Origin: Oscillospiraceae bacterium
GTDB lineage: Bacteria > Bacillota > Clostridia > Oscillospirales > CAG-272
DNA length: 54,159 bases
Reading direction: 5' to 3'
NCBI GenBank assembly: GCA_015064095.1
Contig: SVSW01000005.1
Location: forward strand, 1-54,159
A program made the translations under genes and the position numbers. Below are positions 11,333-32,500 of this stretch, in pieces (the stretch's first letter is position 1; every line of letters begins with the position of its first letter). Under the pieces are notes generated by a model. It made no database searches and was not told the DNA's origin. It saw nothing but the letters and a program-made list of their open reading frames with translations.

Positions 11333-14300
11333 TCAGTGATTTATAACCTGGTATCCATATGCCTTTATCTCGTATACAGTTTCGCCGTATTTTACCGTTA
11401 TATCGAACGAATTGTAGTTGAGTATAAAGGTTCTGTATGCCTCGGCATCGTCGCCGTCTTTTCCGCCGTATGTGACGGCTACAACAGAACCGTCGTCATA
11501 GGTGTACTTGCTTACGGTGTTCACCACTTCTTCCTTCTTTACCGGCTCCTCGACTTCTATGACATTTGTCATGTTACCGTCTTCATCAATCAGTCCGGCT
11601 TTCACCGAAAGATCGAAGAAGTGTTCAAATGTCGCCGTTGCCTCGTCGTAAAGACCTGTGATTACCGTCTCGTTCTCCAACGCTTCAAGATATACATCAT
11701 TAGCGCCGGCATATATGCCGTTTATTGCCTCGGCATCTGCTACAATTGAGCTGATATTCGCTTTCGCGGACTCGATTGCGGCATATGCGTTCATGATCGT
11801 TGCATATCTGTTGCGGAAAACTCCCGTATAAGCGTCTATTTTCTGCTTTGCTTCTTCCATTTCGGATTTGGAAATGTTCATGGTGACCACTGTGGCCATG
11901 CGCTCTGCCAAGATTTCAGCAGCTTCCTCAATATCAAGCTTGCTAAGGTCTACAAGAAGAAGCTCCTCGTATCTCTTGCTTGCTGCCTGATACTGTGCCT
12001 TTGCAGCCTCATATTTTTCCTTGAAGGTCAATATCTCCTCTACATTTCCTATAACGTCGTTTACGCCGTTTATGACGCCTGCGTTATTTGTATCGGCGGT
12101 GTTATAATTTGCTTCGATATCCTCATCGCCGAACACAAGAACCTTTGCACGAAGAAGTGCATCGCTGTCCAAAATAGCCTTGATAGCGCCTATCTTCGCT
12201 TCGATAGCCGCAAGATTTGCCTCTATCTCTGCAACTGCCGCAACTGCATCATCATAGAACTGCTGTGCTCTTTGCTTCTCTGCATCTGTTGCTTCCGGAT
12301 CTGCCTTTGTTGCATTGAGCTTTTCGAAAAGCTTTTCGGTTGCTTCCTTTGCAATCGCAAGTGCCTGCTCTGCTGTTTCCTTCATCTGCTTCGCGCTTGC
12401 ATACGCGCCCTGGATATTATCAAGGTTCTCGCGCAGCGAAGGAACGTATGCATTATATGCTTCAAGCTTTTCCTCGGCATCTATGCGCAGTGCTGCGGCG
12501 TTCTTCTCCTCGTTGCTTGCAGCATTAAGCTTTTCTGTTTCTGTATTTATAGCTTTTATTGCCGCTTTCACGAGTTCAAGCGTCTGCTTTGCTGCTTCTA
12601 CGGTTTCGTATGCCGAAACTGCTACTGCATAATCGCCTGTGACATCGTAAAGATCATATGCTTCCTGCGCTTTGTCGAGCTTTGTCTTCGCCTTGGCTCT
12701 TGCCTCGTCCTTCACCTTAAGAAGATCTCTCTCCTCTTGGGTCGTCATGCCGGAGTTGACCTCAGCGAATATCTCATTGTACTCTGCGTTTGCAAGATCG
12801 TACGCTTCTTTAGCTGCTTTGAGCGCTTCCTTTGCCTTGTAAGCGGGCTTTACGGTTTCCTCGCTCTCGTTCGCCTTCGTCATTGCGGCTTCCAGAGCTG
12901 CTTTTGCTGTGGCGAGTGCCGTTTCATACGGTGTAAGATTTGCAGCATTGATATCGGCAAGCAAAGCACCTGCGTTGATCGCGGCGTCAACTGCCTCGTT
13001 CTTTGCGGTGGTTGCGGTAACGATATCGTTGACCTTTTCCAGAGCCTTGTTCTTTCCGGAGTTATATCCGTTCTTTGCGGTATTGATAAGATCTGCTACG
13101 CTCTTTCCAACGCGAGAAACTATTTCATCAAGTATTTCAAGCGCGGCGGTTTGCGTTACTGCAAAGTCTGCGGGTGCTGCGTTTCCGATTATTGTTTCGG
13201 CCTCTGTTCTGACCGCTACCTGGATCGCTGCCAAAAGATCTGCCTGATCTCTTGCCGCTGCCTCTGCCTTCTCAACGGAAGTTTCATATTTAACCGGTGC
13301 TGCGGTTGCTATCGCCAACGCGCTGTCTGCCGCGGTATTGCTTGCTGCCTCAATAAGCGCATTGTAAATTCCGTTTATGAGAGTTGCTTTGCTGCTGCCG
13401 AGCTCTGCAACAAGATTGGATACAACCTTGCTGTCTTGGAAGAGTCCGGGCAGGCGGCGCTTCACTGCTGTCTTGACATATTCACAAGCTGCATCGCCGT
13501 ATATCTCAAGATATGCCTCGTCTGCTGCCGCAACAGCCTGATTTGCTACGCTGAGAGCAGCGTATGCTTGGTCTACATAGCTCGAATCTATCTTCGCTGC
13601 TGCCTTTGTAGCCTTTATTGCCTGATCGCTTGCGTTCTTCAATGCTTTGATCACAGCATCACTCTGTATTCCGGGAGTTTTGCGGAGCTCAAGTGCCGCC
13701 CTCAGCGCTTCCTTAGCTTCTTGTGCAAGCTTTTCAGCTTCGGCAAGCGCTTCAGCCTTCTCAAGAGCCTTTCTGTCCGCCTCTGCCTCATCGGCATCGG
13801 GGATACGGTCGACTACGAGGAACTCGTGATCAATTATAAGCTTTGTCTGAAGATCTGACAGAAGATCGTTAAGCTCAACGTACATATCAACGACATCGTC
13901 TTTCCAAATGTCATATCTTATGGAATAGTTATCGCTGAGACGGTTGAATTCTTTAAGTACATCTGTATTCTGATACGAAAGCTTGAAATAAAGTCCGCTT
14001 CCGTTTTCTATTGCGCGAAGCAGAGCTGCCTTGAGGTTGCCCTCCTCGTTTATCGGAGTGCCTGCGTAATTCATATAACCGTGGAGCACCATTCCGACAA
14101 ACGGAACTGTGTTGCTTGCCACGTTATAATTACTTGAATTGAGCGGAGCGTTGACTATATGATCAACATATTTAAGCGTATAAGAATTGCCTCCGTCAAC
14201 CATGATCTGCATATCCTCACCGTACTCGTTTCTCAGAAGCGAGATCTGGCGAAGTGCATCGATCGTGAACTGCATTGCGTCCTCACGGTTATAAGGATCA

Positions 14301-16828
14301 TCCTCATCAAAGTCGGAGTTAAGAGCCGTTCCGAGAGTGGATACCGAAATACCCATCGGATTATACTTCATATAATTCGATGTGAACTTTGTTACAAATC
14401 TTGCAAAGAATGCAGGAGATATTGCAAGCTCATAATATCCGACGTAGTTTTGATATGTTGCGTCATATACGCGACGGCTGGTATATCTGTTGTCTATTGT
14501 CTTAACTGCGTGATCAAGAAGCGATACGCCGTCAAAGAGTGCGGTTTCACTTACATACGCAAAGTCGAAATCCGGGAAAATTCCGAATCCTTCCTCGCGT
14601 GCGGTTTCAACCAATTCTTGGAAGCCCGAAGCACCTCCGAGGGATTCCTCCCAGTTGAGATGGTAGGGCATCGTTGAGAACATACCGCCGTTTGCATAGC
14701 CTGTAAGTCTGAAATTGATGTTTGAGAAGCCCTGATTCTTTTCACCGACGGAAACGGGATCCTTGATCGCCGCCATTTCCTTGTCGATAGCATCGGAGAG
14801 CTCCGTATACATCGTCTTGACGTCCTCAAACGTTGTAAGAGGTGTCATAACGTTGACAGGCATCGAAAGGATCTTCTCGACGGTCTCAACCGTTCCGAAG
14901 GTCTCAATGTAAAGCGGAATATTTGCATCGGCTTCACTTTCCGCTATTCTCGAAATCACGCCCGTGTATTCGAGATAATCTCTGTAAGCCTCTGCCATAC
15001 CGACCCAAGAACATTCATAATAATTGCTTATTCCGTTCTCTACCGCAATCTCCGTGTCTGTCAGCATGATGTATTTTATCTTATAGTTGCCGACGTACTT
15101 TCTGTCAGAAACTACCTTTATCTCGGTGTTTTGACCGACCGAGATCGCATCGGACATATTATAAGTATCGGAAGATCTCGGATAGAAGGTGACTTGCATG
15201 GAGCTGTATTCACTAGATGCATTTCTGTGCGATGTCGTTAACTGCGCCATCGAATCGCCTTCGTCAATTATAGCAAGGAAGCCGTGATCTTCTTCGGTAA
15301 TTACCGTCTTTGTACCGTATACGGCATCTTTTATGATATTACCATCTTCATCTTCCTCTGCGGGAGATATGACATTCTCGTAATCGGTAACTGTTTTCAG
15401 ACCCTTCCAATACTCAACAGAACCGTATACCGGGTATCTTACGGTTTCATGATGCTTACCTGTCAGCTTATGATAAGCAAAATCCGTTCCGTAAATCTTT
15501 GCTGAAAGTGTTGTGTTTGCACCGTTGTTCAGGTCCTCATAATCAAACAGCGCGCCCGAGCCGTCCGGGAAGAAATTATATCCGCCGTTTCCGCTCTTGC
15601 CTGCTCCCATAAAAGGAAGAACCGTGATACTGTCGAGCTGATAGAGCGACTCATCGAAGCGAATTCCGTTCGCCGGAAGTCTTACTGTCAGGCCCTGTTC
15701 GTCCAGCGTATATTCAAGTGCAAGTCTGAAAAGTGCGGGTGCCTTTGTCGTGCCCGTGTACTCGGTTTCAAGATGGTCTGCATCAAGCTGCTCAAATGTA
15801 TAGCTCTGAACGTAAGTCTTGATGTGTCTTTCCGCTTTTATAAGGGCTGTGGTCTTTGGATTCTCATTGAAAACGTAGACTGCCATCTTTTTGGTTATCG
15901 GATATGTATTATTCATTTCCGATATCTCTTTATCGGTTACTCCCTCAGCCGAAGGATCGTAAAGAGTATAGTTGTTCAGGAGCTCTCTGACTGCCTGGTG
16001 GTCTACCGCTTTTCGCTTTTCATCGGGGTCGTTTTTGGGTCTTTCATCGGTAAAAACGACAGGACCGTTCATATCAAAGTCGGGATTTTCCATACAGATC
16101 AGATCATAATAGCCATATGACTGACCAACCTCTATCAACCCCGCTGCTTTTGCAAACGGGAAATTATCTATCGGCTCCTCGTTTGTTTTAAAAGTCGCCT
16201 TTTCCGTGATAAGGATCGACACGCTGTTGTTTACGGCTTGGCGCATCGGAATGAGAATGTTGTTCTCAAACGACGCCTTTGACGCCATTCTCGGAACAAG
16301 GTATCTCGAATTCTGACGGCCTATTGCGTATTCAACGCGAATACCGTTCTTTATGTACTTGATCTTTATCTGACCTCTCTCTGCAGCCTCAATGGTACTG
16401 AGCATTTCCTTCGAGGTTCCGTTGTCGGTATAGTTTACAATAACCTGCGAAAGAAGTCTTTTCTTTTCGTCCAGCGAATTGGTGTTCGAGGTATTGATAT
16501 CCCAAGGGTTTGAGAAAAGCGTTTCTCCGGTTGCCTTTTTAAGTATAGCGACCTCACCGGTTATCTCATCTGCATAAAGCTCGTAGTAATCTGTTTCAAG
16601 CATGAGCTTCATTGTATTGAGCTTTCCCTGGGCTGTGGTAACCGGATTAACCTCGAACTCATCGAGCTTTAAATAATCTTCTATAACTTTCTGATAATCT
16701 ATTGATCCCGATTCGGAATCGATTGCGTCACCCAAGGGTATTGCACCAACGGGAACTGGGATCACAGTCAGAGTTCCGCAGAACATCAATACAGCCAAGA
16801 AAGCCGATAATATTTTAATTTTTTTCAT
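11333..16828 (-). CDS. Large secreted DUF5696-like protein with a long Ala/Glu/Lys-rich helical insertion (1831 aa)
   Basis: Signal peptide; motifs FSNP, LPFMGAG..GYNFFPDGSGAL, RYPVYG, TPLTTFED, VPFVGMVLHG, LRAIENG and C-terminal ILNYN recall DUF5696 proteins of such ABC clusters (recognised from memory, no HMM run). Confidence 0.7.
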   Translation of the reverse strand: MKKIKILSAFLAVLMFCGTLTVIPVPVGAIPLGDAIDSESGSIDYQKVIEDYLKLDEFEVNPVTTAQGKLNTMKLMLETDYYELYADEITGEVAILKKATGETLFSNPWDINTSNTNSLDEKKRLLSQVIVNYTDNGTSKEMLSTIEAAERGQIKIKYIKNGIRVEYAIGRQNSRYLVPRMASKASFENNILIPMRQAVNNSVSILITEKATFKTNEEPIDNFPFAKAAGLIEVGQSYGYYDLICMENPDFDMNGPVVFTDERPKNDPDEKRKAVDHQAVRELLNNYTLYDPSAEGVTDKEISEMNNTYPITKKMAVYVFNENPKTTALIKAERHIKTYVQSYTFEQLDADHLETEYTGTTKAPALFRLALEYTLDEQGLTVRLPANGIRFDESLYQLDSITVLPFMGAGKSGNGGYNFFPDGSGALFDYEDLNNGANTTLSAKIYGTDFAYHKLTGKHHETVRYPVYGSVEYWKGLKTVTDYENVISPAEEDEDGNIIKDAVYGTKTVITEEDHGFLAIIDEGDSMAQLTTSHRNASSEYSSMQVTFYPRSSDTYNMSDAISVGQNTEIKVVSDRKYVGNYKIKYIMLTDTEIAVENGISNYYECSWVGMAEAYRDYLEYTGVISRIAESEADANIPLYIETFGTVETVEKILSMPVNVMTPLTTFEDVKTMYTELSDAIDKEMAAIKDPVSVGEKNQGFSNINFRLTGYANGGMFSTMPYHLNWEESLGGASGFQELVETAREEGFGIFPDFDFAYVSETALFDGVSLLDHAVKTIDNRYTSRRVYDATYQNYVGYYELAISPAFFARFVTKFTSNYMKYNPMGISVSTLGTALNSDFDEDDPYNREDAMQFTIDALRQISLLRNEYGEDMQIMVDGGNSYTLKYVDHIVNAPLNSSNYNVASNTVPFVGMVLHGYMNYAGTPINEEGNLKAALLRAIENGSGLYFKLSYQNTDVLKEFNRLSDNYSIRYDIWKDDVVDMYVELNDLLSDLQTKLIIDHEFLVVDRIPDADEAEADRKALEKAEALAEAEKLAQEAKEALRAALELRKTPGIQSDAVIKALKNASDQAIKATKAAAKIDSSYVDQAYAALSVANQAVAAADEAYLEIYGDAACEYVKTAVKRRLPGLFQDSKVVSNLVAELGSSKATLINGIYNALIEAASNTAADSALAIATAAPVKYETSVEKAEAAARDQADLLAAIQVAVRTEAETIIGNAAPADFAVTQTAALEILDEIVSRVGKSVADLINTAKNGYNSGKNKALEKVNDIVTATTAKNEAVDAAINAGALLADINAANLTPYETALATAKAALEAAMTKANESEETVKPAYKAKEALKAAKEAYDLANAEYNEIFAEVNSGMTTQEERDLLKVKDEARAKAKTKLDKAQEAYDLYDVTGDYAVAVSAYETVEAAKQTLELVKAAIKAINTETEKLNAASNEEKNAAALRIDAEEKLEAYNAYVPSLRENLDNIQGAYASAKQMKETAEQALAIAKEATEKLFEKLNATKADPEATDAEKQRAQQFYDDAVAAVAEIEANLAAIEAKIGAIKAILDSDALLRAKVLVFGDEDIEANYNTADTNNAGVINGVNDVIGNVEEILTFKEKYEAAKAQYQAASKRYEELLLVDLSKLDIEEAAEILAERMATVVTMNISKSEMEEAKQKIDAYTGVFRNRYATIMNAYAAIESAKANISSIVADAEAINGIYAGANDVYLEALENETVITGLYDEATATFEHFFDLSVKAGLIDEDGNMTNVIEVEEPVKKEEVVNTVSKYTYDDGSVVAVTYGGKDGDDAEAYRTFILNYNSFDITVKYGETVYEIKAYGYQVINH

Positions 16829-16850
16829 ATTTCGTCTCCTCTCTGCACGA

Positions 16851-19040
16851 CTACATGCGGTAATTAAGCTCGGTTACTATGTTGGATATGAAGCCTACGA
16901 TCTTTCCGAGCAGTGTGGTAAACAGCAATGCGACAAACATGATAAATACCATTCCCACAAAGGTTCCTGCCGTTGTGAGGAAGTTTTTACCCATTGAATA
17001 ATCGTGTGTTACCATCATTCCAAGGAAGATCAGAAGCCCTGACCAAATATAACCGAATGTGACAATGACTGACAAAATGTCAAGCTCCTCGACAAGCATG
17101 AAGTTAGATGCTATCGTCGTGGGGATAAGCAACATGACCATGGGAACAAGTGAATATCCGAGAGCGATTATAACATCTTTAAAGCTTCCTTCTCCGTCAA
17201 AGAGTGTCGTCAAGCACCAGTTTGCAACGGCAAACAGGAAGAACGGAACCAAAACCATAATTGCCTGATCTATTATCGTTGAGTAGTTTCCGTGTGGATT
17301 GGAAACATATCCGGTTCCGACAGCTTGATAGAAGAATGCTATTACGGTGATCGCTATGAAGAACACTGCTGCTCTGAGCGATCCTCGCTTTTCATGCTTT
17401 AGATCCCAGAATCCGTCGAACGGGTGGAATATCACATGGAAGACATACAAAACCTCTTCTTTAAAGTTTCTCTTGCCGCCGGCAACTGCCGCCCTGGTGT
17501 TTACCTTCTTGCAGTATTTCATGAACATAGCCCAAAGCAAGCAGATCGCAACTACTCCGATCGGAATGAGGATAATGAATTTGCTTATCCACTCCTTACG
17601 TATTTCTTTATACGCATCGGACCAGTTTGCCGTATCGTACGCCGCTTCGTAGTATTTCATTGCCTCCTCGTAATCACCGCTGCGGTAAAGAGACTGACCG
17701 ATTCCGATATATGCGGCATCAAAGTTCGAGTTTCTCTTCAAAATATCCGTCCAGTCTTCGACTGCGAGGTTATACTGTCTGTTGTTTTGGTTGGCAAGTG
17801 CGCGTATCAGAGTGTTTCCGTACTCGGTTCTCTCATAAATCGTAAAGCTTCGATCGTTTTTGTTGAGTATGAGCATTCTGTCGCCCTGATAAACTATACC
17901 TGCCATATTACTTAAAGTTCCGAGCTGATTTCCGCTATCTCCGAAAACGAAGAGCAGATTTCCGTCGAAATCGTAAGTAAATACCTTCGAACGCTTTTGG
18001 TCGATTATTGACCATGTTTTTTCGGGTCCTACGGCAACGTCAACGATAGTTGACGGGCCGGTTATAACCGTAGCACCGCTCTGACCGACCGATGCGCCTG
18101 CAAGCGTGCTCGTTACACGAACTTCTCCGGAAGGCGGCCAAAATCCGTTTCGTCTCATGATCTCCTCGCCTGCGGCGTTGAGCATCTTGACGGGGGCGTA
18201 GTCGCCTGCCTTCGATTTTGAGTTTATCGCGCTCTGCTGAGCGTCGGGATCGATAGATCCTGTTGTTGCGTAAATAAATCCGTCCTCTGTTATCGTGATA
18301 TTATTGAACTCGGTTGAAACGACCTGCTCGGACATCTCTCTCTGCTCATCGGTTTGGAAGCGTCTCCAAAGTATATCCCAAGCGCTGAGATTTGATTTCT
18401 GTGCTCCTATAAAGCCTGTGAAATCACCCGTATCGGTCATAACTATAATTCCCTGATATGTAGTGGACGACACGACAAAAAGTCTGTTGAACTCGTCGAC
18501 CGCGACGGCTATCGGTCTGTATTTGTCGCCCTCATCGAAAAGGGTGGATACAGGCGCGGGAATTATCGCATTAAACTCATATTCCCCGTCGCCGTCGAGA
18601 TCGCGGTCAAATGTGACTATTCTTTCATTGTTTGTGTCACATACATAGATCTTTTCGGGTGTAACAAAAACTCCCTGAGGATTATTCAGCTTATCGTCAA
18701 TATAATCCGAGTTTTTGAACTCCGAGAGCGATTTTACAAAATTGTAATTCCTATCGAGGATAACTATTCTGTTGTTATCCGCGTCTGCTATATATACGTA
18801 TCCGTCCTCGTCAACCTCAATGTCTGACGGATTTTTGAGTTCCTTTCCGCCGAGATTGTCAAGTCCTATCGTATTTGAGTTTACAACACCGTGCGTTATC
18901 GGGAGATAAGCATCGGGGGAATACAGTGCATAGCCGTCATACGAGTAAGTATACGTTTGATACGCCTTTGCTCCGACGGGAATCGCCATCACCGATGCCA
19001 GAAGAAGGATAACGGCAATTATCGATATTATCTTTTTCAT
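16851..19040 (-). CDS. NHL-repeat beta-propeller + TPR-like + Yip1-family membrane domain fusion protein
   Basis: Signal peptide; NHL repeats (LKNPSDI..YIADADNNRIV, LNNPQGVFV..YVCDTNNERIV); TPR-like AAYIGIGQSLYRSGDYEEAMKYY; C-terminal HPFDGFWDLK and NWCLTTLFDGEG Yip1-type 5-TM region. Confidence 0.8.
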   Translation of the reverse strand: MKKIISIIAVILLLASVMAIPVGAKAYQTYTYSYDGYALYSPDAYLPITHGVVNSNTIGLDNLGGKELKNPSDIEVDEDGYVYIADADNNRIVILDRNYNFVKSLSEFKNSDYIDDKLNNPQGVFVTPEKIYVCDTNNERIVTFDRDLDGDGEYEFNAIIPAPVSTLFDEGDKYRPIAVAVDEFNRLFVVSSTTYQGIIVMTDTGDFTGFIGAQKSNLSAWDILWRRFQTDEQREMSEQVVSTEFNNITITEDGFIYATTGSIDPDAQQSAINSKSKAGDYAPVKMLNAAGEEIMRRNGFWPPSGEVRVTSTLAGASVGQSGATVITGPSTIVDVAVGPEKTWSIIDQKRSKVFTYDFDGNLLFVFGDSGNQLGTLSNMAGIVYQGDRMLILNKNDRSFTIYERTEYGNTLIRALANQNNRQYNLAVEDWTDILKRNSNFDAAYIGIGQSLYRSGDYEEAMKYYEAAYDTANWSDAYKEIRKEWISKFIILIPIGVVAICLLWAMFMKYCKKVNTRAAVAGGKRNFKEEVLYVFHVIFHPFDGFWDLKHEKRGSLRAAVFFIAITVIAFFYQAVGTGYVSNPHGNYSTIIDQAIMVLVPFFLFAVANWCLTTLFDGEGSFKDVIIALGYSLVPMVMLLIPTTIASNFMLVEELDILSVIVTFGYIWSGLLIFLGMMVTHDYSMGKNFLTTAGTFVGMVFIMFVALLFTTLLGKIVGFISNIVTELNYRM

Positions 19041-19055
19041 TGCTTTTTCCTCCTT

Positions 19056-19928
19056 TTAATCCTTCATACCACTCGAACCCATCGTTTCTATGATGTTCGA
19101 CTGAGTGATAACGAAAACAAGTATCGGCACCATCATCATAATAACGGTTGATGCCGCGCCCGCACCGGCACGCTTGATACCGCCGGCGAGGATCTGCTGG
19201 ATCGCGTAGTTGAACGATTTGAACTGCTCTGACTGAATGTAGATCGAAGATCCTGCGTTCCAAAGTCCCTGGAACGAGTAAACGATAAGTGTCAGCCATG
19301 CGGGCTTGACCATCGGCATTGCGATCACCCAGAAGGTGCGGAATTCGCTTGCGCCGTCAAGTCTGGCAGATTCAAGAACCGCATCTGTTACGCCGCTATC
19401 CATAAACTGCTTCATGAGGTAGAGTCCAAGAGATGTACAGAATGCGGGAACGATCAATGCCCAATAGGTATCGAGCATTCCGAGCATACTCATGATGAAG
19501 AAGTTTGTGATCGAAGTAACGGTTGCGTGGAACATCAGCGATGTACGGACTGTCTCGAACATCCAACTGCGTCCCGGGAACTTGATCTTCGCCATGGCGT
19601 ATGCTGCCATCGAAGAGCAGAAAAGGTTTCCTGTAGTTCCGACTACCGATACAAAAACCGTGTTGAATATGTAACGCGAGAACGGCACCCACGAGGTGTT
19701 CATCAGCGTAAACAGATCCTTGAAGTTATTAAGCGTCGGCTTCATAACTATAAATCTCGGCGGGAACATCCAAAGCTCATCAAGAGGCTTTAAGGACTGA
19801 ATTACAACGTAATACATCGGCAAAAACATAAATACGCCGAGGATCACGAGCATAATTGTTATACCCAAGTCGCCGCCCGCCGAACGGTTCAGAACGACTT
19901 TGTGTTTTCTTGTTCTTAATCTTGCCAT
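19056..19928 (-). CDS. Carbohydrate ABC transporter permease (MalG-like)
   Basis: SLKPLDELWMFPP motif; EAA loop LMKQFM..VLESARLDGAS. Confidence 0.9.
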   Translation of the reverse strand: MARLRTRKHKVVLNRSAGGDLGITIMLVILGVFMFLPMYYVVIQSLKPLDELWMFPPRFIVMKPTLNNFKDLFTLMNTSWVPFSRYIFNTVFVSVVGTTGNLFCSSMAAYAMAKIKFPGRSWMFETVRTSLMFHATVTSITNFFIMSMLGMLDTYWALIVPAFCTSLGLYLMKQFMDSGVTDAVLESARLDGASEFRTFWVIAMPMVKPAWLTLIVYSFQGLWNAGSSIYIQSEQFKSFNYAIQQILAGGIKRAGAGAASTVIMMMVPILVFVITQSNIIETMGSSGMKD

Positions 19929-19929
19929 A

Positions 19930-20877
19930 TCAGTTACCTACCTTTGAAATGACTTTCTTTACGAGTAGGTTGGAGCCAACCATTACGGCAAAGAGTACTA
20001 CCGCTATTGCGGACGAATATCCTATTTCGAATCGCTGACCGCCGTAGTCGTCCAAGTGGTGCATTATCGTATGCGCCGCGTAATCGACCGAGGGGAAGCC
20101 GCACAGTGCGGTAACAACCGCTCCGAATCCGAAGGAGTTTGTAATGGACATGATAGCACCGAACATAAGCTGCGGCTTCATATTCGGCAAGGTTACATAC
20201 CAAAGCTCCTGCCAACGGTTGCGAATACCGTCAACAGCTCCCGCTTCGTACTGTGCGCGGTCGACGCCCTGAAGACCTGCGATAAACGAAAGGAACGAGG
20301 TTCCGAGTGAGCACCAAATAGCGACGATTATACACAGCGGCATAACATAGCTTGCATTTTCGAACCAGTTTACCTCGCTTGAGATAAGTCCGAGCTCAAG
20401 AAGCCATGCATTTGCCCAACCGTACGAGTCTCCCGAGAAAAGCGTTTTCCAAACGAGATATGCTTCTCCGGAAATCGAAGGTGCGTAGAATATTAGAGTT
20501 ACGATAGCGCGGATCTTCGGCGAAAGCTCATTTATAAACCATGCTACCATAAGTGACATAAGATAAGAACACGGGCCGACTATTGCGGCGAATATAAATG
20601 TATTCTTAACTGCGATGAGGAACACGTCGTCGTCAAGGAAAAGCCTGACGTAGTTGTCAAACCAGACGATGTTCGGCATCTGCAACATATTAAAGTCCGT
20701 AAAGCTGAAGAACACGGAAAGTACGACGGGAACGACCGTGAATATGGTGAAGAGGATCATGAACGGTGCAACCATGGCATATCCTGCCCAGTTGCGCTTC
20801 ATCTCTTTCCACGTCCACTGCATTTTTGTCATATCTTTACGCGCCACAGCTTTTTTTGCTGCAGTTTTTTCTGACAT
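19930..20877 (-). CDS. Carbohydrate ABC transporter permease (MalF-like)
   Basis: EAA loop IAGLQGVDRAQYEAGAVDGI..ELWYVTLP. Confidence 0.9.
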   Translation of the reverse strand: MSEKTAAKKAVARKDMTKMQWTWKEMKRNWAGYAMVAPFMILFTIFTVVPVVLSVFFSFTDFNMLQMPNIVWFDNYVRLFLDDDVFLIAVKNTFIFAAIVGPCSYLMSLMVAWFINELSPKIRAIVTLIFYAPSISGEAYLVWKTLFSGDSYGWANAWLLELGLISSEVNWFENASYVMPLCIIVAIWCSLGTSFLSFIAGLQGVDRAQYEAGAVDGIRNRWQELWYVTLPNMKPQLMFGAIMSITNSFGFGAVVTALCGFPSVDYAAHTIMHHLDDYGGQRFEIGYSSAIAVVLFAVMVGSNLLVKKVISKVGN

Positions 20878-20898
20878 TGTTTTATCTCCTTACTTAGA

Positions 20899-23800
20899 TC
20901 AATATGAAGCTTGGTAATCCTTGAAGCATTCTGCGATCTCATCGAGCTTGTCGGCGAGTTCGTAGAAGTCGGAATACTGAGTTTTTCTTAACGCAACTGC
21001 CGCAGCCGTGAAGAATGCTATGTCCTCATCGGGAACGGAGTTCGTTGTTTCGGGGACCTTTGCAAGCGCCTCATTGATCAGGGCGATCTCGTCTTTATAT
21101 TTTGCCTCTACTGTGCCGTCAAGCGTTGAAAGCACTTCTTTTATCTCGTCTATACGCTTATCGGCAAGTGTTTTTCCGATCTCAAGAGTTTCAAGATCGA
21201 ATTCTTCGCGTTTTCTTGTTATTTCCTTATTAATTAGATTAATGTAAGAAAGCAACTCGTTTGTCGGGCTTGCGAGGTTATCATAAGCCGCAAGGAACGA
21301 GAATTGGGTGTAACGCGAGATTATATAAGAGCCGGGATAGTTCGGGATCGATGCAAGATTCTCGAACTGAAGCGAAAGCTGATTATACTCATCGGTCGAC
21401 CAAGGCATACTTTCAAGTGCCTTTGTGTTTGCCGTGGGATGCTTTGCGGAGTCACCGAGTATTGCAACCATCTCATTCGAATAGTTGACCTGGCAATCTT
21501 CGCCGACATACCATTTCATGTAATCCCATGCAGCTGTCTTTGCATCACAGCCGTTCATCATCGCAATAGCAGTTACCGTGGAAACCGCCTGATTGTTGAT
21601 GCTCTTTACGACCTTTTCGCCGTTCTCATAAATGAAATCACCGTCTTCATTAGTTTCATAAGTGGCGATACCGGGCAGCGGATAGAATGACCAAAGTCCG
21701 CGTATCTCCGTTGCGAAAACAACGAGCTGGTTATAAGTTGCGTTGTAGCTTGCTATACCTATCGGTATTTCACCGGTTCTGAAACGGTTTGCAAAATCGT
21801 ACTTATAGGGGAACGAGTACATCGTAAAGAGATTACACATATACTCAAACGATTCAAGCGCGAGGTTCGAATCAAGATTGATTCTCATACCGTCATCGGC
21901 GAAAAGCTCTCCGCCCTGCTGATACAGGAACACCTTATAGTCATTCGACATACCGATCTGCATGTTCTTCGACTGAAGAACGGGGATCGCAGCCTCTATA
22001 TCGTCCCAGCTTTTCGGAATTTCAAGTCCGAGATCGGCAAGAATATCATTACGGACGAACATCATCGCGAAGTTCTGAGTTTCGGGCAAGCCGTAGTAAT
22101 GCATGATACCCTTTGTATCCGCAAGTCCGAGAACGTACATTGCCGCCTCATTGAACTGAGCGTCTTCATTCTTTATCTTGTTGCCGTTTTCGTCGAGCTT
22201 ATAATTATAAACGTAGGTAGAACCTTCAAAATTATCTCCGATGTTGTAAAGATCGCCGTTTTTATCAAAATAGCAATAATGATTGCCGTTTCTATCGGTT
22301 ACCTCGCCCGAGTTATCCGACGAGAATGCGATCGTGTACATCGTCACACCGTCACCGGATTTGGCGAGTATCTTTGACGTTCCGCGGCCTTCAATAATAT
22401 AATTGTCAGCCTCAAGCTCGGAGATAAGCTCGGAAACGTTTTTCTTAACCATTACATATTGATTTGTAATTTCATTGAATCCTTCATAGTTTTCAACGTT
22501 AAGAAGCGCGCCGCGTATTGCGTAGTTTATGATGTTATCCTCAGTTACTCCTATATAAACATCAGGACCCGATCCTGCAAGTATCGACGGCAGAAGCGCT
22601 CCGGCGTTAACAAGCTTGAGATCAACAAGATGGCCTGTTTCGGGGGTGAACTGATTATTTATGAGGTTACGGATAACCTGTGTCTGGTCGCGGCCGTATG
22701 CAAGCCAGACCTCAACGGTCTCGTTGCTATCGGAGCTTTTGGTGGTTGCACCCATACGGTCATAGTTTCTGAAGAAGCTCTGGAAGAAACGCGTGATCTC
22801 GTGCCAGAGGCTCTCGAAGAAATTAGCATTTGCGGGGGGAAGCTCGGCATCTGCGCTCTGAACTACGAAATAGTCGAGTCCGAGCGGCTGAGTTTTAGCC
22901 GTGCTGACCCAAGTACCGAGAGTACCTATATAAGATTTGAGCTGATCGAGGTATTTTGCAACGTTATCCTCGTCCTTACCCATTTCCGCAAGAAGCCATG
23001 CGATACGCTCAAGCGTTGCAACATTAGAGCTCTTTGCTCCCGCTATATCAGCAAGCTCCTTTGCGATCGCCGTAAGATTGTCGGCCTCAACGAGAAGACC
23101 CGCCATCGTATCCGGCATTATGCGATAGAATCCGTAATCGCGGTATTCATCGGGATCGGCACCAGTGAGCTTCAAGATATCAAGGTAATAGGAGTTGATA
23201 TTTGACAGCGAGCCCGATACGCGGCTGACAACATCTCCCATGTCGCCGAGAGAGACCTCAAGCTCGATCGTATATGTAACGCCTTCCTTGAAATAAAACT
23301 CAAGGGGGATCTCCTCCCACTGTGAATTACCGTTCTCACCGGAAATTCTCTTGGCATACATAAGCGGTCCGACCTGCCAATCGGTGGAATAGTCAAAACG
23401 CAAGTTCGCCGCCTCTGTGAAAGGACTTCCGTTATAATATCCGTCTGCCCCCTCGGCAAGGCCTTCGCTGTATATACGAAGTGCACGTGACGAGAACATA
23501 CCGTCATTTATATTCTGTCTGTATCTTGCTACTATCTGATAAAGACCGTCTGCATCAACTTTGAATTTATATCTCAGCCACTGACCTGAGGTCTGCCACT
23601 TATCTCCGCCTATTGTATTGAGCACCGTGTGGCTCGTATTGGACGGCGACGTGAGTGCCGAGGAAGGATCCTCTATCGGGTAAACCGTTTGAGATGAGGA
23701 CGAGAACACGTACTCAGCTTCAAACTTTACGCTTCCCGTACCCTTTTTGTATCCCTTTGCCTCATACTCTTTAAGAATGTCCTCATAAGAGCGGCTCTCC

Positions 23801-24831
23801 TCAAGCGGGCAAAGAGTGATGCTCTTTATGACCATGGGCTGATTCTTGGACTGAAGGCTTATCGTGTTCGTTCTGCCGGCATAAAGCAAAAATTCAAACG
23901 ACTCGGAATAAAATCCGTCGACGTCGCTGCACTCATAAGCTCTCCATTCGGGAACACGCTGCATTGTGGGGCGTATCTCGTTTCCGTCTATATCCGAGGT
24001 AAAAAGTCTAAGATCGGACTCGGTCATTTTGTCAACGATCTCGTCTGTCCAGCCACCGTCGGGAAGATCTATAACAATATATGAAGAATCGGCAGCCACC
24101 TCATACTCGAGCCCGCAGCGCTTGGCTGCTTCGACGTAAGGCGTTACGTCGGTGTACGAGCCGTCCTGCTTTTGGGTCATCGTAATCTTATAGAGCGAGC
24201 GCCATACCTTCGCCAGCGTTAAATAACGCGCTTCGGCAAAAGGAATAGATCCGTTGATCTTAAGTATTCTTTCGATCGACGACGCCTTGTCCTCCGCCAC
24301 GACCGTGCCTTCCTGACCGATAAGCTCGTTTACCGGATAATACTCGATCTTTATCGAATACTTTGAATACGTAGCATAATCCGTTACTATCTCATTGGTC
24401 TGCGGATCCTCGTGCGTTCCGACGACAACATTTGGAACATCAACGTCAAACGATATCTCTCCGATCGCGGGAGTATAAACGCCCAACACCTCGCCGTTAT
24501 TAGGCACGTAGTCATCACCAACGACGGTCACGTCACCCGTGAGAGAATCGACCTTAACGCGATAAACGTCCGCCGTTGTCGCGTCGGCATTATAATCAAT
24601 GCCGCTGACCGTTATCTCTTTTTCTCCCTTGGGAGCCGCCTTAAATATCTCCGTTCCGGCATACTCCTGATAGGATACTGCGTTCAGCAGCTCACGCACG
24701 TCATCGAGCGTTGAGTCGGACACCGACCCACCGCCGTTTTCGCCTGCGGCGGCGGGTATTACCCCCCCGACGAGAACGAACGACAACGCAAGCAGAAGAG
24801 CTGTAATTCTTCTGAACAATGGTTGCTTCAT
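20899..24831 (-). CDS. Very large extracellular solute-binding protein (1310 aa) with N-terminal CBM-like beta-sandwich region
   Basis: ATG at 24831 follows GGAGGA; Sec signal ends VIPAAA with no lipobox Cys; FEAE and WQTSGQWLRYKFKV..GLYQI CBM-like motifs; C-terminal family-1 SBP motifs (GRDQ, YGLPETQNF, PKSWDD, AAWDYMKW). Confidence 0.85.
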   Translation of the reverse strand: MKQPLFRRITALLLALSFVLVGGVIPAAAGENGGGSVSDSTLDDVRELLNAVSYQEYAGTEIFKAAPKGEKEITVSGIDYNADATTADVYRVKVDSLTGDVTVVGDDYVPNNGEVLGVYTPAIGEISFDVDVPNVVVGTHEDPQTNEIVTDYATYSKYSIKIEYYPVNELIGQEGTVVAEDKASSIERILKINGSIPFAEARYLTLAKVWRSLYKITMTQKQDGSYTDVTPYVEAAKRCGLEYEVAADSSYIVIDLPDGGWTDEIVDKMTESDLRLFTSDIDGNEIRPTMQRVPEWRAYECSDVDGFYSESFEFLLYAGRTNTISLQSKNQPMVIKSITLCPLEESRSYEDILKEYEAKGYKKGTGSVKFEAEYVFSSSSQTVYPIEDPSSALTSPSNTSHTVLNTIGGDKWQTSGQWLRYKFKVDADGLYQIVARYRQNINDGMFSSRALRIYSEGLAEGADGYYNGSPFTEAANLRFDYSTDWQVGPLMYAKRISGENGNSQWEEIPLEFYFKEGVTYTIELEVSLGDMGDVVSRVSGSLSNINSYYLDILKLTGADPDEYRDYGFYRIMPDTMAGLLVEADNLTAIAKELADIAGAKSSNVATLERIAWLLAEMGKDEDNVAKYLDQLKSYIGTLGTWVSTAKTQPLGLDYFVVQSADAELPPANANFFESLWHEITRFFQSFFRNYDRMGATTKSSDSNETVEVWLAYGRDQTQVIRNLINNQFTPETGHLVDLKLVNAGALLPSILAGSGPDVYIGVTEDNIINYAIRGALLNVENYEGFNEITNQYVMVKKNVSELISELEADNYIIEGRGTSKILAKSGDGVTMYTIAFSSDNSGEVTDRNGNHYCYFDKNGDLYNIGDNFEGSTYVYNYKLDENGNKIKNEDAQFNEAAMYVLGLADTKGIMHYYGLPETQNFAMMFVRNDILADLGLEIPKSWDDIEAAIPVLQSKNMQIGMSNDYKVFLYQQGGELFADDGMRINLDSNLALESFEYMCNLFTMYSFPYKYDFANRFRTGEIPIGIASYNATYNQLVVFATEIRGLWSFYPLPGIATYETNEDGDFIYENGEKVVKSINNQAVSTVTAIAMMNGCDAKTAAWDYMKWYVGEDCQVNYSNEMVAILGDSAKHPTANTKALESMPWSTDEYNQLSLQFENLASIPNYPGSYIISRYTQFSFLAAYDNLASPTNELLSYINLINKEITRKREEFDLETLEIGKTLADKRIDEIKEVLSTLDGTVEAKYKDEIALINEALAKVPETTNSVPDEDIAFFTAAAVALRKTQYSDFYELADKLDEIAECFKDYQASY

Positions 24832-25136
24832 GATTTTTCCTCCTGAAAGATTTTTTCGGACAGGGCCGTGCCCCTCCGAACTGCCCTCGCTTTTGCGAGT
24901 GCTTATATTCAACCGAATCTTGCCAAGCTTTTTCCGTGAGCGCATCGCGACTCCGATATGCTTGCGGAAAAGCGACCTTCGGTCGGCAGGGCGAGCCTGC
25001 TAAAGAAGCGCTCGCTTTCCGCCACTATTCCTTAATGACGGACAGACCCCGACGGTTGGCCGACCGTCGGGATCTTCATTCTGTCGGTCCGCGGCGACTC
25101 CGCGGACTCCAAAGCGATATGCTTCCTCATTTGATG
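24832..25136 (-). ncRNA. Candidate structured 5' leader RNA of the ABC operon (family not recognised)
   Basis: About 300 nt, GC-rich, between a strong promoter and the RBS; at least 7 stems visible by eye and a repeated AAGCATATCG decamer. Confidence 0.55.
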
Positions 25137-25141
25137 CTAAT

Positions 25142-25170
25142 ATGATACCATACGATAATTTCTCTGTCAA
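25142..25170 (-). promoter_or_regulatory. sigmaA promoter for the ABC operon
   Basis: Minus strand TTGACA-17 nt-TATCAT with an extended -10 TG. Confidence 0.75.
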
Positions 25171-25673
25171 GGCGTATATATATGTAGAAAACCTCTGCCG
25201 CGCGCCATTTCTTTCGAGTGATCTTCTGCGCCGAAAAAGCAAAAATATTACCTCTTTTTTGATTTTTGGAAGATTTCACGAAGAAGTTTTTTTGTCTTTT
25301 TGTTTGGTAAATCAAATTTACATCAGTGGTGCTGCAAAAGTGTCGGTTTTGTCACGCTATGCATTTTTTTGTGCAACTTGTATGAACAAAAAATCGTAGT
25401 TTTTTGAGGGTAATTATAATTTACCTGCCTTTCCCGATACCCTGATTTTTCATGTATTGTCGATTTTCGGCACTGTATACATATTGCACAATTTTGAATT
25501 CAAAATTTCTACAAATATGTAGAATGATAATTTTTTCAACAAAAAACACAAAATCGACGCAAAAAACGCCTTTTTGGGCTTAAAATTTACATTTTTTGTA
25601 TGCGATATAAATATTTGTAAATTTTAGGTTTTTAAAATTCACACGGTTACCACACAAATCACAAGTGCAAAGC

Positions 25674-25814: not shown

Positions 25815-25952
25815 AAAGCCTTCCTGCGGGAGGAAGGTGGCGGCGAAGCCGTCGGAAGGAGCCTGCGTTGCTTAATATTTAGAGTAACGATATCTCAACG
25901 CGCTCTCCCCCACCCGACTACGTCGGGAGCCCCCTCCCGGGGGGAGCCTTTT
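25815..25952. repeat. REP-like palindromic element (inverted doublet)
   Basis: Two head-to-head GC-rich hairpin units (AAGCCTTCCT..AGGAAGGT-GGCGGCgaaGCCGTC-GGAAGGAG and CTCTCCCC-CCCGACtacGTCGGG-AGCCCCCTCCC..GGGAGCCTT) resemble interspersed palindromic repeats I recall from Clostridia. Confidence 0.55.
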
Positions 25953-26047
25953 GCACAGGCTCATTATCACTCTATATTTCGTTTGCTTTTTCTCATCGGC
26001 AATAGCCTTTTTTGAACCGCGCCACTATCGCGTGATTTTCGTCTTAC

Positions 26048-29509: not shown

Positions 29510-32500
29510 CCCAAGTGTCACCTTTCTTTTTGGCGATCTCGCCCACGTCAAGCTCAAGCACCTTCGAAATACCGTGCTCCGGCATCGTTACGCCGTAAAG
29601 GCGGTTTGCCGCCTCCATCGTGCCGCGGCGGTGCGTGATGACGACGAATTGAGTGCCGTCCGTGTATCGCTTTATGTACTCTGCAAAGCGCGTGACATTG
29701 ACCTCGTCAAGCGCCGCCTCGATCTCGTCGAGTATGCAGAACGGAGTGGGGTTGACCTGAATGATCGCAAAGAACAGAGCTATCGCGATAAACGACTGCT
29801 CTCCGCCCGAAAGCTGCATCAGCGATTTGATGATCTTTCCGGGAGGTGCTGCTTTGATCTCAATGCCCGAACCGAGCACGTCGTCGGGATCTGTCAGCGA
29901 AAGCTCTGCCGAGCCGCCGCCAAACAGCTCCGAGAACACTCGGTTGAAGTTCTCGTTTATGCGGTTGAACGCATCAAGGAAGGTCGATTTCATCTCACCG
30001 TCGATCCTTGAAAGTATGCTTTCAAGATCGGCCTTGGACTTTGTCAGATCCTCGATCTGTCCCGACATATAATCGTATCTCGCCTTGATCTCTTTATACT
30101 TTTCAACGGCATCAAGGTCGACGTTTCCGATAGCGCGCAGCTTATTTCGGCACTCCGTTTGGATAGCCTGAACCTCGCGCCTCGTTTCCTCGTTTATCGC
30201 GGGATATCCGAGCGCTATTGCTTCGCTTCTCGTGATCCCGTGCTCCTCGGTCAGCTTATTTGCGAGCTTATCCTGTGTATCGCGCAGATTTTCAAGCTTC
30301 GTTTCGTATTTTGTATACTCGCGGAAGATGAGCTCCTTTTCGTTCATCTTGGCGCGCAGCTTTGCGCCGAGCGCGTTGAGAAGACGCTCAAACTCAAAAT
30401 TATCCTCCTCAAGTGCCGTTCGGCGATCCGAAAGCTTTTTGAGTTTATCGGAGCTCTCTGCGAATTTCTCGCGGTTTTCGCGGCGCTCAGCCTCGATCTG
30501 CGCAATCTGGGCACGCAGCCCTTCAATTCTTTCATTTGCCTCGCCGATCTGCTCGCTAAGTCTTGCAAGCGTATCGTTCGATGCGCCGATAAGCGTTTCT
30601 TCCGTTTCTATATCCTTGCGCAAAGAGTTTATACCGATAAATTCGGCCGTCATCTTCTCGCTGATCGCATCGCGTTCTGCAAGCTTTTCGTTGCGCTTTA
30701 TATTCGTATCCGAGCGATATGCGGATATCTCCTCGCGCGTAGCTGCAAGTCTTTCTATTTCGGCCGAGAAGGTCTTGATCTCCTCCTCGTTCTTTTGTCG
30801 CACCTCTCCGAGTGCTCCGAGATCGACACGCAGCTTTTCAAGCAAGGTATTATTGGCATCGAGCTTTGCCGCAAGCTGGCTGAGCGCATTCTGCTCGCTC
30901 GTGCGCAGCATATTTATAAGCTTTATCTTATCCTCGCAGGCGTTTTTCGCCGATACGACCTTTTCATACTCTCGGTTTTGTCTTTCGCGCTCTTTTTCGG
31001 TGTCCTCAATATCCGCGCGCAGTCCCGTCAGCTCCGATTCGAGATTTTTGATCTCACCGGCGCGTCCGAGAATACCGCCCTTGGTCTTTGACGAGCCGCC
31101 TGTGAACGAGCCGCCGGCATTGATCTGCTGACCGTCAAGCGTGACGGCGCGAACACGGTAGCGCATGGCGCGCGCCATATCGGTCGCATTATCTATATTG
31201 TCAAAAATCACAGTTCTGCCGAGCAGATTTGACACCACTCCGCGGAATTTTTCATCGCAGGAAACAAGGCTGTCGGCAATTCCGATATACCCGCGATAGC
31301 TCGCGGCGGACTGAAGCTCGTCCGTCAGGAAAGACGGTTTCATTGACGAAAGGGGAAAGAACGTGGCTCGGCCTGCCTGCGCCTGCTTTAAGCAGTACAT
31401 AGCAGCCTTCGCGGCGCTTTCGTCTGCCACGACTATATGCTGAAGATTTGCGCCGAGCGCAGTCTCAATTGCGGTTATATACTTGTCCTCAACCGAAATG
31501 ACGCGTGACAGAGGACCGTATATTTTTGCGCAGCGAACACCGTTCGGATCGGTTATTCTGCCTTCCGAATACTGTTTCATTACATACCGAACGCTACTGT
31601 TATAACCCTCGAACTGCTCCTCCATTATCTTGAAGTTTTCAATTCTTTGGATTATCGAATCGCGGCGGAAGCGCATTTTGGCAAGCTCCGAATCCGTTTT
31701 TTCGAGCTCGTCAAGCTTTGCATCGGCATCGCTTTCTTGCTTTGATCTCTCGTTTTCCGTTTCATCAAGCGATGCGGAATAAGAATCTATCATCGCCTGC
31801 TTCTCGGCACACTGTGACGAAAGTATGCCCGAGGTCTTTTCATACTCGGCAATATCCGTGCGCACCGTTCCGCTTTTGTCTTCGTCGGTAATATTAGCGT
31901 CTTCAAGCACTCGCACGCGCACTCGAAGTTCGTTTTCCTCTTTGTCTATGCGGCGAATATCCTCAAGCGCGGCGGCAAGATCAAGCTCCATTGCGCTTGC
32001 CTCGCGGTCAGCCGCTTTTTGCTCCTCCGTGAGCCTTTCATATTCCGAAAGTTTCTTTGAGAGCTCCTCGCCGAGAGCGCGTTTTTTGTTCTCGCGTGCC
32101 GACTTGACCTCGTTTTCCGTGTTTATCGCACCCTCGGAATTCGCAATTCCCGCCTGTGCCGATGCGATAAGCTCATTTATATGCAAAAGATTGGTTTCAC
32201 TGACCTTATAATCACTTTCGAGCGCGTGATTTTCGTCTGTTGCCTCGCGTATCTCTCGATATATCTGCTCAGACGACAGCTTTGAGTTCTGCGAATCCTC
32301 AAAAAGCTTTGCGTTCTGGCGCTCGTACTCGGCGATCGCGGACTCTGCGTTTTCAAGATCAAAAGCCGTGCGGCGGAACGCCTCATCGGCCGTTTCCATA
32401 TCTGCACGGAGCTTTTCCGTATCATAAAGCCAAAGCTGAACGTCGGCTTTTTTCTTTTTATCAAGCAGCTCAATGGCGCGTGTGGCCTTTGCCGCCTCTT

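Follow-up and report, generated by a model that had tools for sequence, protein, structure and literature searches.

A candidate leader RNA family with repeated conserved hairpin loops upstream of a giant SBP gene in one genus of uncultured gut Clostridia

The window analyzed here is the whole stretch of 54,159 nt of contig SVSW01000005.1 from an Oscillospiraceae bacterium (assembly GCA_015064095.1; positions 1 to 54,159), and coordinates refer to it unless another contig is named. Its minus strand carries a giant SBP gene (20899..24831), which encodes a secreted protein of 1310 aa with a C-terminal SBP_bac_8 domain and is the first gene of an operon (11333-24831). The genes downstream of it encode two ABC permeases, a Yip1/NHL/TPR membrane protein of 729 aa and a DUF5696 protein of 1831 aa with a long coiled, alanine-rich middle, and an ATPase gene is absent from the operon. 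Among the papers covered by our literature search, none mentions DUF5696. The SBP gene starts at the ATG at 24831-24829, behind the Shine-Dalgarno (SD) sequence AGGAGGA at 24844-24838 (together 24829..24844, minus strand), and UCAGGAGGAA is invariant across the seven leaders of the genus. The start is not the ATG at 24945, which is in phase with the SBP frame, lacks an SD and is unconserved in orthologues; because this ATG opens the frame, mechanical ORF lists give the protein a length of 1348 aa. SBP relatives are present in 42 of the 61 genomes searched, the protein identity among the four lineages of the genus that carry the operon is 63-65%, and a contig scan for SBP relatives found further carriers among uncultured Eubacteriales/Clostridia MAGs.

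Between the upstream terminators and the ATG, the sole minus-strand promoter-like site is a sigma-A type promoter, TTGACA-17-(TG)G-TATCAT, at 25142..25170, with 11/12 matches and a TG-extended −10 box. We infer a TSS at about 25135, and we define the 5' leader as the 310 nt that separate the −10 box from the ATG (24832..25141, minus strand). A sequence-only reading of this DNA had described a TTGACA-17-TATCAT promoter followed by a highly structured leader of about 300 nt, GC-rich beside AT-rich DNA and lacking a terminator, and all of these features were recovered. The minimum free energy (MFE) of the leader is −137.6 kcal/mol, compared with −104.6 ± 5.2 for 100 dinucleotide shuffles (z = −6.41), and no shuffle was equally stable. 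The GC content is 0.56 in the 240 nt before the RBS and 0.36 farther upstream. The MFE of a 240-nt stretch of the leader (−111.7) also lies below those of all 161 long upstream regions in the genome (best −98.8), a comparison made on rough ORF calls from a scan in which the start of the SBP gene itself was mis-set. There is no intrinsic terminator on the minus strand within the leader, and the two terminator-like sites found there belong to the opposite strand. The leader matches only itself in the 1.39-Mb, 92%-complete assembly, so that it is not a dispersed genomic repeat, an identity under which the proposal of a regulatory RNA was to be given up.

The sequence elements that had been named inside the leader are likewise all present where they were placed (all on the minus strand). 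The strands closing domain 1 are AAUGAGGA (25131-25124) and UCCGUCAUU (25042-25034), and the domain carries a hairpin with a conserved loop, hereafter HP1, GUCCGCGG-AGUCG-CCGCGGAC (25087..25107), as well as a long hairpin, GACAG..AUCCCGACGGU-CGGCCA-ACCGUCGGGGU-CUGUC (25041..25085). A hairpin is found at the place of the latter in every lineage, with a lineage-specific sequence. The strands of the alternative pairings, GCGGAAAGCGA (25022-25012) and UCGCUUUUCCGC (24975-24964) together with CGGAAAA, are present, and so is the decamer AAGCAUAUCG, which occurs at 25124-25115 and at 24963-24954 with GGAGUC following each copy. The first copy of a repeated word, UUGGAGUCCG (25103..25112), overlaps the 5' strand of HP1, and its counterpart in two other species of the genus (G001 and G004) is UUGAAGUCCG. 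The second hairpin with a conserved loop, HP2, is UAUCG-GAGUCG-CGAUG (24943..24958), lengthened in this genome by GCUUUUCCG / CGGAAAAAGC to 24973-24927. Closer to the gene lie a small hairpin, CUCGC-AAAA-GCGAG (24886..24899), and an RBS-proximal hairpin, GUUCGGAGGGGCACGGCCCUGUCCGAA (24855..24881), with an A-rich stretch of about 10-12 nt as spacer after the latter. By inspection of the folds, a stable hairpin stands 10-12 nt before the SD in all seven leaders of the genus.

The operon is carried in the genus by seven species of four lineages (G000; G007, G003 and G006; G001 and G004; G002). A metagenome scan with an alignment of the N-terminal part of the SBP added two loci, one with a leader identical to that of G007 and the other distant. 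The seven leaders are 235-313 nt long, all have the same promoter type with a 17-bp spacer, and their identity between lineages is only 43-58%. In each of them there is one HP1, with a 5-nt loop A[G/U][U/C]CG closed by CGG/CCG (the loop of G002, AUUCG, is divergent), and one HP2, with a 6-nt loop RAGYCG closed by CG/CG. The distance from the promoter to HP1 is alike in all seven, the HP1 loop beginning 39-43 nt after the −10 box, and HP1 and HP2 are 100-146 nt apart, with lineage-specific structured inserts between them. The word RAGYC[GC] occurs exactly three times in six of the seven leaders and once in that of G002; compared with shuffles, its enrichment ranges from 0/500 to 65/500 per leader. 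The repeated decamer with its GGAGUC is the local trace of this word.

Since plain MAFFT did not align whole leaders correctly across lineages, covariation was counted only for HP1 and HP2 and within the set of the three closest leaders. Six of the eight HP1 pairs and four of the five HP2 pairs changed on both sides; the fraction of cells paired is 97.9% in HP1 (72.5% when shuffled, and 35-65% when the partner is slid) and 97.1% in HP2 (73.2% when shuffled), all of these pair counts being inflated by the selection of segments, which required a hairpin around the word. The power of the covariation is low, since the motif is limited to seven species in four lineages. In the three closest leaders, 78 alifold pairs include 10 with compensatory changes, and the HP2 loop is invariant within the most variable segment. 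Moreover, the conserved center is asymmetric and the arms are variable, which is the opposite of what a DNA operator displays, so that it is the RNA on which selection acts. In the orthologous loci of the genus, to which the sequence-only reading had looked for conservation and covariation, two hairpins are thus kept with compensatory stem changes, and we read the leader as a multi-hairpin RNA that selection maintains in a single genus of uncultured gut Clostridia. A search of the whole window against Rfam 15 gave no match at the gathering thresholds, and at E ≤ 10 the region 24700-25400 gave five chance-level matches, all with E ≥ 2.2 and far below gathering. The leader therefore matches no Rfam family and is a new, genus-restricted candidate RNA family.

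To what extent the motif reaches beyond the genus was examined in several ways. In a BLASTN search of the leader against 60 relatives, only the RBS region was hit. An HP1 model, searched against 53 sources of 284 kb in total, recovered its own seven training hairpins along with weak hits to HP2 in three leaders, and gave no match at E < 1 in 46 orthologous loci outside the genus; the motif is absent from the nearest outgroup. The two-hairpin pattern, searched in 401 genomes of the family, found five leaders of the genus and seven sites elsewhere, and the latter are at chance level because the reversed-pattern control gives about 12. Across genera, no k-mer is enriched in 51 leaders. An element with a AAUAUCAAG-hairpin, which at first sight seemed common to them, found no support. 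Within this genome, other CGRAGYCGC hairpins lie inside open reading frames or are isolated. A look-alike occurs in front of the monocistronic tRNA-Lys(UUU) gene (G000:C17, about 30361-30417, minus strand), which stands behind a TTGACA-17-TGGTATTAT promoter and whose short 5' leader forms GUcCGCG-AAGUCG-CGCGAC with the same loop word as HP2. We rejected it as a chance hairpin and not a member of the motif, as it is unconserved: G005 keeps the hairpin with the loop ACGUUG, and five other loci of the genus are without it.

What the orthologous loci outside the genus do share is the general architecture. Their leaders are long, with strong promoters and a hairpin before the SD; among 50 orthologous loci, the median GC content is 0.475 in the proximal and 0.367 in the distal part, and the median folding z is −2.4 and −1.1, respectively. 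A structured leader is thus an old property of the operon, and the RAGYCG loops are a specialization at the level of the genus. As the loci outside the genus are structured yet without the motif, a sequence-independent role, for example stabilization, may be both the ancestral and the main function.

In many orthologous promoters of this genus and of other genera, the −10 box is followed at a distance of 3-5 nt by the hexamer GCCA(C/U)A, as in TATCAT-ATT-GCCACA and TAAAAT-GTT-GCCATA. This hexamer may be a conserved initial transcribed sequence.

The sequence-only reading had further proposed that competing helices switch the leader between alternative states, and this part did not hold up. The alternative pairings that it named occur only in this genome, and the other six leaders have no equivalent around HP2 or the RBS hairpin. 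Heptamers with both an upstream and a downstream partner number nine in the leader, compared with 5.3 ± 3.4 in shuffles, and 15 of 100 shuffles reach nine. Such pairing triples are enriched in four of the other six leaders, but in different, non-homologous segments. A competing-helix switch is thus not supported, because the pairings are specific to one genome and no commoner than in shuffled sequences. As for the SD, the mean unpaired probability of GGAGG is 0.28-0.52 across the seven leader ensembles, and inspection of the folds revealed no anti-SD element common to the seven leaders. With no terminator and an SD that is about half unpaired, neither attenuation nor SD sequestration is indicated. 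An attenuator or terminator riboswitch was accordingly dismissed, as the stretch from the TSS to the start codon has no intrinsic terminator, and so was a translational riboswitch or thermometer, there being no conserved helix that sequesters the SD or the AUG.

Another argument for the RNA as the control element had been that no regulator lies next to the operon. This argument is weakened, because the operon is probably under the control of an XRE-type regulator through conserved palindromes. The DNA upstream of the SBP promoter contains two palindromes with the pattern GTAAAT-N3-5-ATTTAC, a distal one at 25409..25425 (GGTAAATTATAATTACC) and a proximal one at 25307..25321 (GTAAATTTGATTTAC), about 104 bp apart, and both are putative operators. 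The only other good copy in the genome (G000:C32:27653) is 53 nt upstream of a gene for a 291-aa XRE/HTH_19 protein (G000:C32:26728-27600, minus strand), and the palindrome precedes the orthologue of this gene in all 10 of the closest genomes; among eight more distant orthologues it is present in G014 and absent in seven. Similarly, a strict or near palindrome was found in 29 of 51 orthologous regions upstream of the SBP gene, 27 of the 28 strict palindromes in 228 kb of SBP loci lie within 600 nt upstream of the start, and the spacing is 104-107 bp in 16 of the 18 loci with two palindromes. On this comparative evidence, the SBP operon very probably belongs to the regulon of this XRE-type regulator encoded elsewhere, which would act via the two phased palindromes, and the palindrome and the XRE gene likely form an operator-regulator pair with DNA looping or helical phasing.

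Still farther upstream, between rsfS and the SBP promoter, there is a GC-rich, hairpin-rich dispersed repeat of about 147 nt (25815-25961, minus strand). It has copies of 77-87% identity in contigs C41 (two copies), C45 (two copies), C26 and C39, shows no match to Rfam, and is followed by a terminator-like hairpin at 25705-25684. This repeat could represent a small RNA family, or else an element resembling REPs or MITEs.

We tentatively favor the reading that the repeated RAGYCG loops of this genus-restricted leader RNA are recognized by a trans-acting factor, which thereby decides what becomes of the mRNA, although we hold its probability to be somewhat short of even. Two of the RAGYC(G/C) copies sit in loops, one in that of HP1 (CGG-AGUCG-CCG), whose distance from the promoter is fixed, and one in that of HP2 (CG-RAGYCG-CG). 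The factor that reads them, in all likelihood a multimeric RNA-binding protein or ribonuclease, would set mRNA stability, processing or translation efficiency after initiation, and the remaining GC-rich hairpins, together with the hairpin upstream of the exposed consensus SD, would make for a long-lived and well-translated message. Initiation itself would be controlled separately at the DNA level, by the two phased operators upstream of the promoter, which are probably bound by the XRE-type regulator. We infer both the binding of such a factor to the loops and its effect on the mRNA; a search of this genome for a partner protein gave no candidate, with a single NusG and no CAT_RBD protein found. 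A more specific proposal, which we put forward with hesitation, is that the three RAGYCG words, two of which sit in covarying hairpin loops, could be the operator of an undescribed RNA-binding regulator, or a loop-loop ligand sensor, and would add a new class of post-initiation control to the XRE switch at the DNA level.

The main rival to a trans-acting factor is a constitutive stabilizing or processing leader, in which the array of GC-rich hairpins, placed between a very strong promoter and a consensus SD, would protect a transcript encoding an abundant surface protein against 5'-end-dependent decay without any signal-responsive step, and the loops would be processing sites or merely favored stable loops. 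This is possible, though we find it rather doubtful. The long, GC-enriched and structured leaders that orthologous loci have family-wide without sequence conservation agree well with it, as do the stable hairpin, A-rich spacer and exposed SD of all leaders in the genus and the lack of both a terminator and a conserved SD sequestration. It leaves unexplained, however, why a 9-nt word has been kept in the loops of two hairpins with covarying stems across four lineages whose leaders are otherwise of near-random identity, and several leaders begin with about 20-27 nt of A-rich single strand before the first helix, which is not a classic 5'-terminal protective stem. The same compensatory changes in the stems and fixed loops, in leaders diverged to 43-58% identity, together with a folding stability far beyond that of shuffles, speak against a functionless leader, for which the XRE-type regulator at the promoter would be the sole control and the likeness of the hairpins would be inherited sequence that has not yet decayed. 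That conservation reaches much farther for the palindromes (29 of 51 upstream regions) than for the RNA motif, and that the regulator gene bears the same palindrome in the 10 closest orthologues and in G014, would fit such a leader, which we nevertheless regard as improbable.

A metabolite riboswitch, in which a bound ligand would bring the two loops together in the manner of the two ACGR loops of guanidine-II, or competing helices would switch, seems equally improbable to us. It could draw on the fact that the operon imports a solute and on the presence of two hairpins with near-identical conserved loops and C-G/G-C closing pairs, and it would have to be a new class because no Rfam class matches. 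Yet the conserved nucleotides are confined to the loops, with no conserved junctions or internal loops seen; the hairpins lie about 100-150 nt apart with lineage-specific inserts between them; and the HP1 and HP2 loops, as read from their sequences, are complementary to each other only at a CG dinucleotide. Furthermore, there is no expression platform, as neither a terminator nor a conserved SD-sequestering helix is found and the alternative pairings are at chance level, and the distribution of the motif is restricted to one genus.

If the loops are truly recognized, the leader would represent a new RNA family controlling a conserved and uncharacterized uptake system of abundant, uncultured human-gut Clostridia, and would at the same time illustrate control in two layers, one exerted by phased XRE operators at the promoter and the other by an RNA element after initiation. 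If it is only a stabilizer, it would still offer, joined to its near-consensus promoter, a compact natural leader with which genes could be highly expressed in these organisms. The general importance is moderate, because the reach is one genus.

Among known systems, the leaders regulated by ANTAR proteins (the targets of EutV, NasR and AmiR) carry two adjacent hairpins, each with a hexaloop that has A as its first base and G as its fourth; the second hairpin competes with a terminator, and the pair is read by a dimeric RNA-binding regulator. They are like the present leader in that identical conserved nucleotides recur in the terminal loops of two hairpins, whereas the loops here, A[G/U][U/C]CG of 5 nt and RAGYCG, are about 100-150 nt apart and no terminator is present. 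We therefore do not class this leader as an ANTAR target RNA: the HP1 loop has 5 nt, position 4 of the HP2 loop is a pyrimidine, and the loops, which start 103-146 nt from each other, are not adjacent. The ANTAR domain (PF03861) has no match in this genome, and equally none in 14 control genomes. The guanidine-II (mini-ykkC) riboswitch consists of two hairpins with ACGR tetraloops and a short linker and controls access to the SD. Like this leader, it has a pair of small hairpins that resemble each other and in which C-G pairs close the conserved loops, whereas the loops here are AGUCG and RAGYCG, long structured inserts separate them, and the SD is not sequestered. Since the loop sequences differ and Rfam gave no such match at E ≤ 10, a guanidine-II element was rejected as well.

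In the RAT sites of the PRD/CAT antiterminators (LicT, SacY and GlcT), the RAT hairpin overlaps an intrinsic terminator. Both the RAT site and the present element are hairpins in the leader of a sugar-uptake operon, that of RAT being bound by a protein, whereas this leader has no terminator and this genome has no CAT_RBD protein (PF03123, which matched in four genomes of the control search); PRD/CAT antitermination is thus dismissed. A LoaP-type processive antitermination leader was likewise set aside, as the genome has no NusG paralogue besides one NusG (a single match to PF02357, 184 aa). The mRNA-stabilizing leaders of Firmicutes, namely the 5' stem-loops and stabilizers of Bacillus mRNAs, STAB-SD and the leaders of S-layer genes, serve abundant proteins. 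As in these stabilizing 5' UTRs, there is here a strong promoter, a long and stable leader, a hairpin near a consensus SD and a large secreted protein; unlike them, for they need no conserved loop, this leader repeats a loop word on covarying stems. A bulk prediction from human gut metagenomes has yielded 16,482 structured-RNA models (PMC8040213). In the part of its supplement archives covered by our search, the motif strings had no match, and its candidates resemble this leader in their gut habitat, in combining intergenic conservation with covariation, and in being absent from Rfam.
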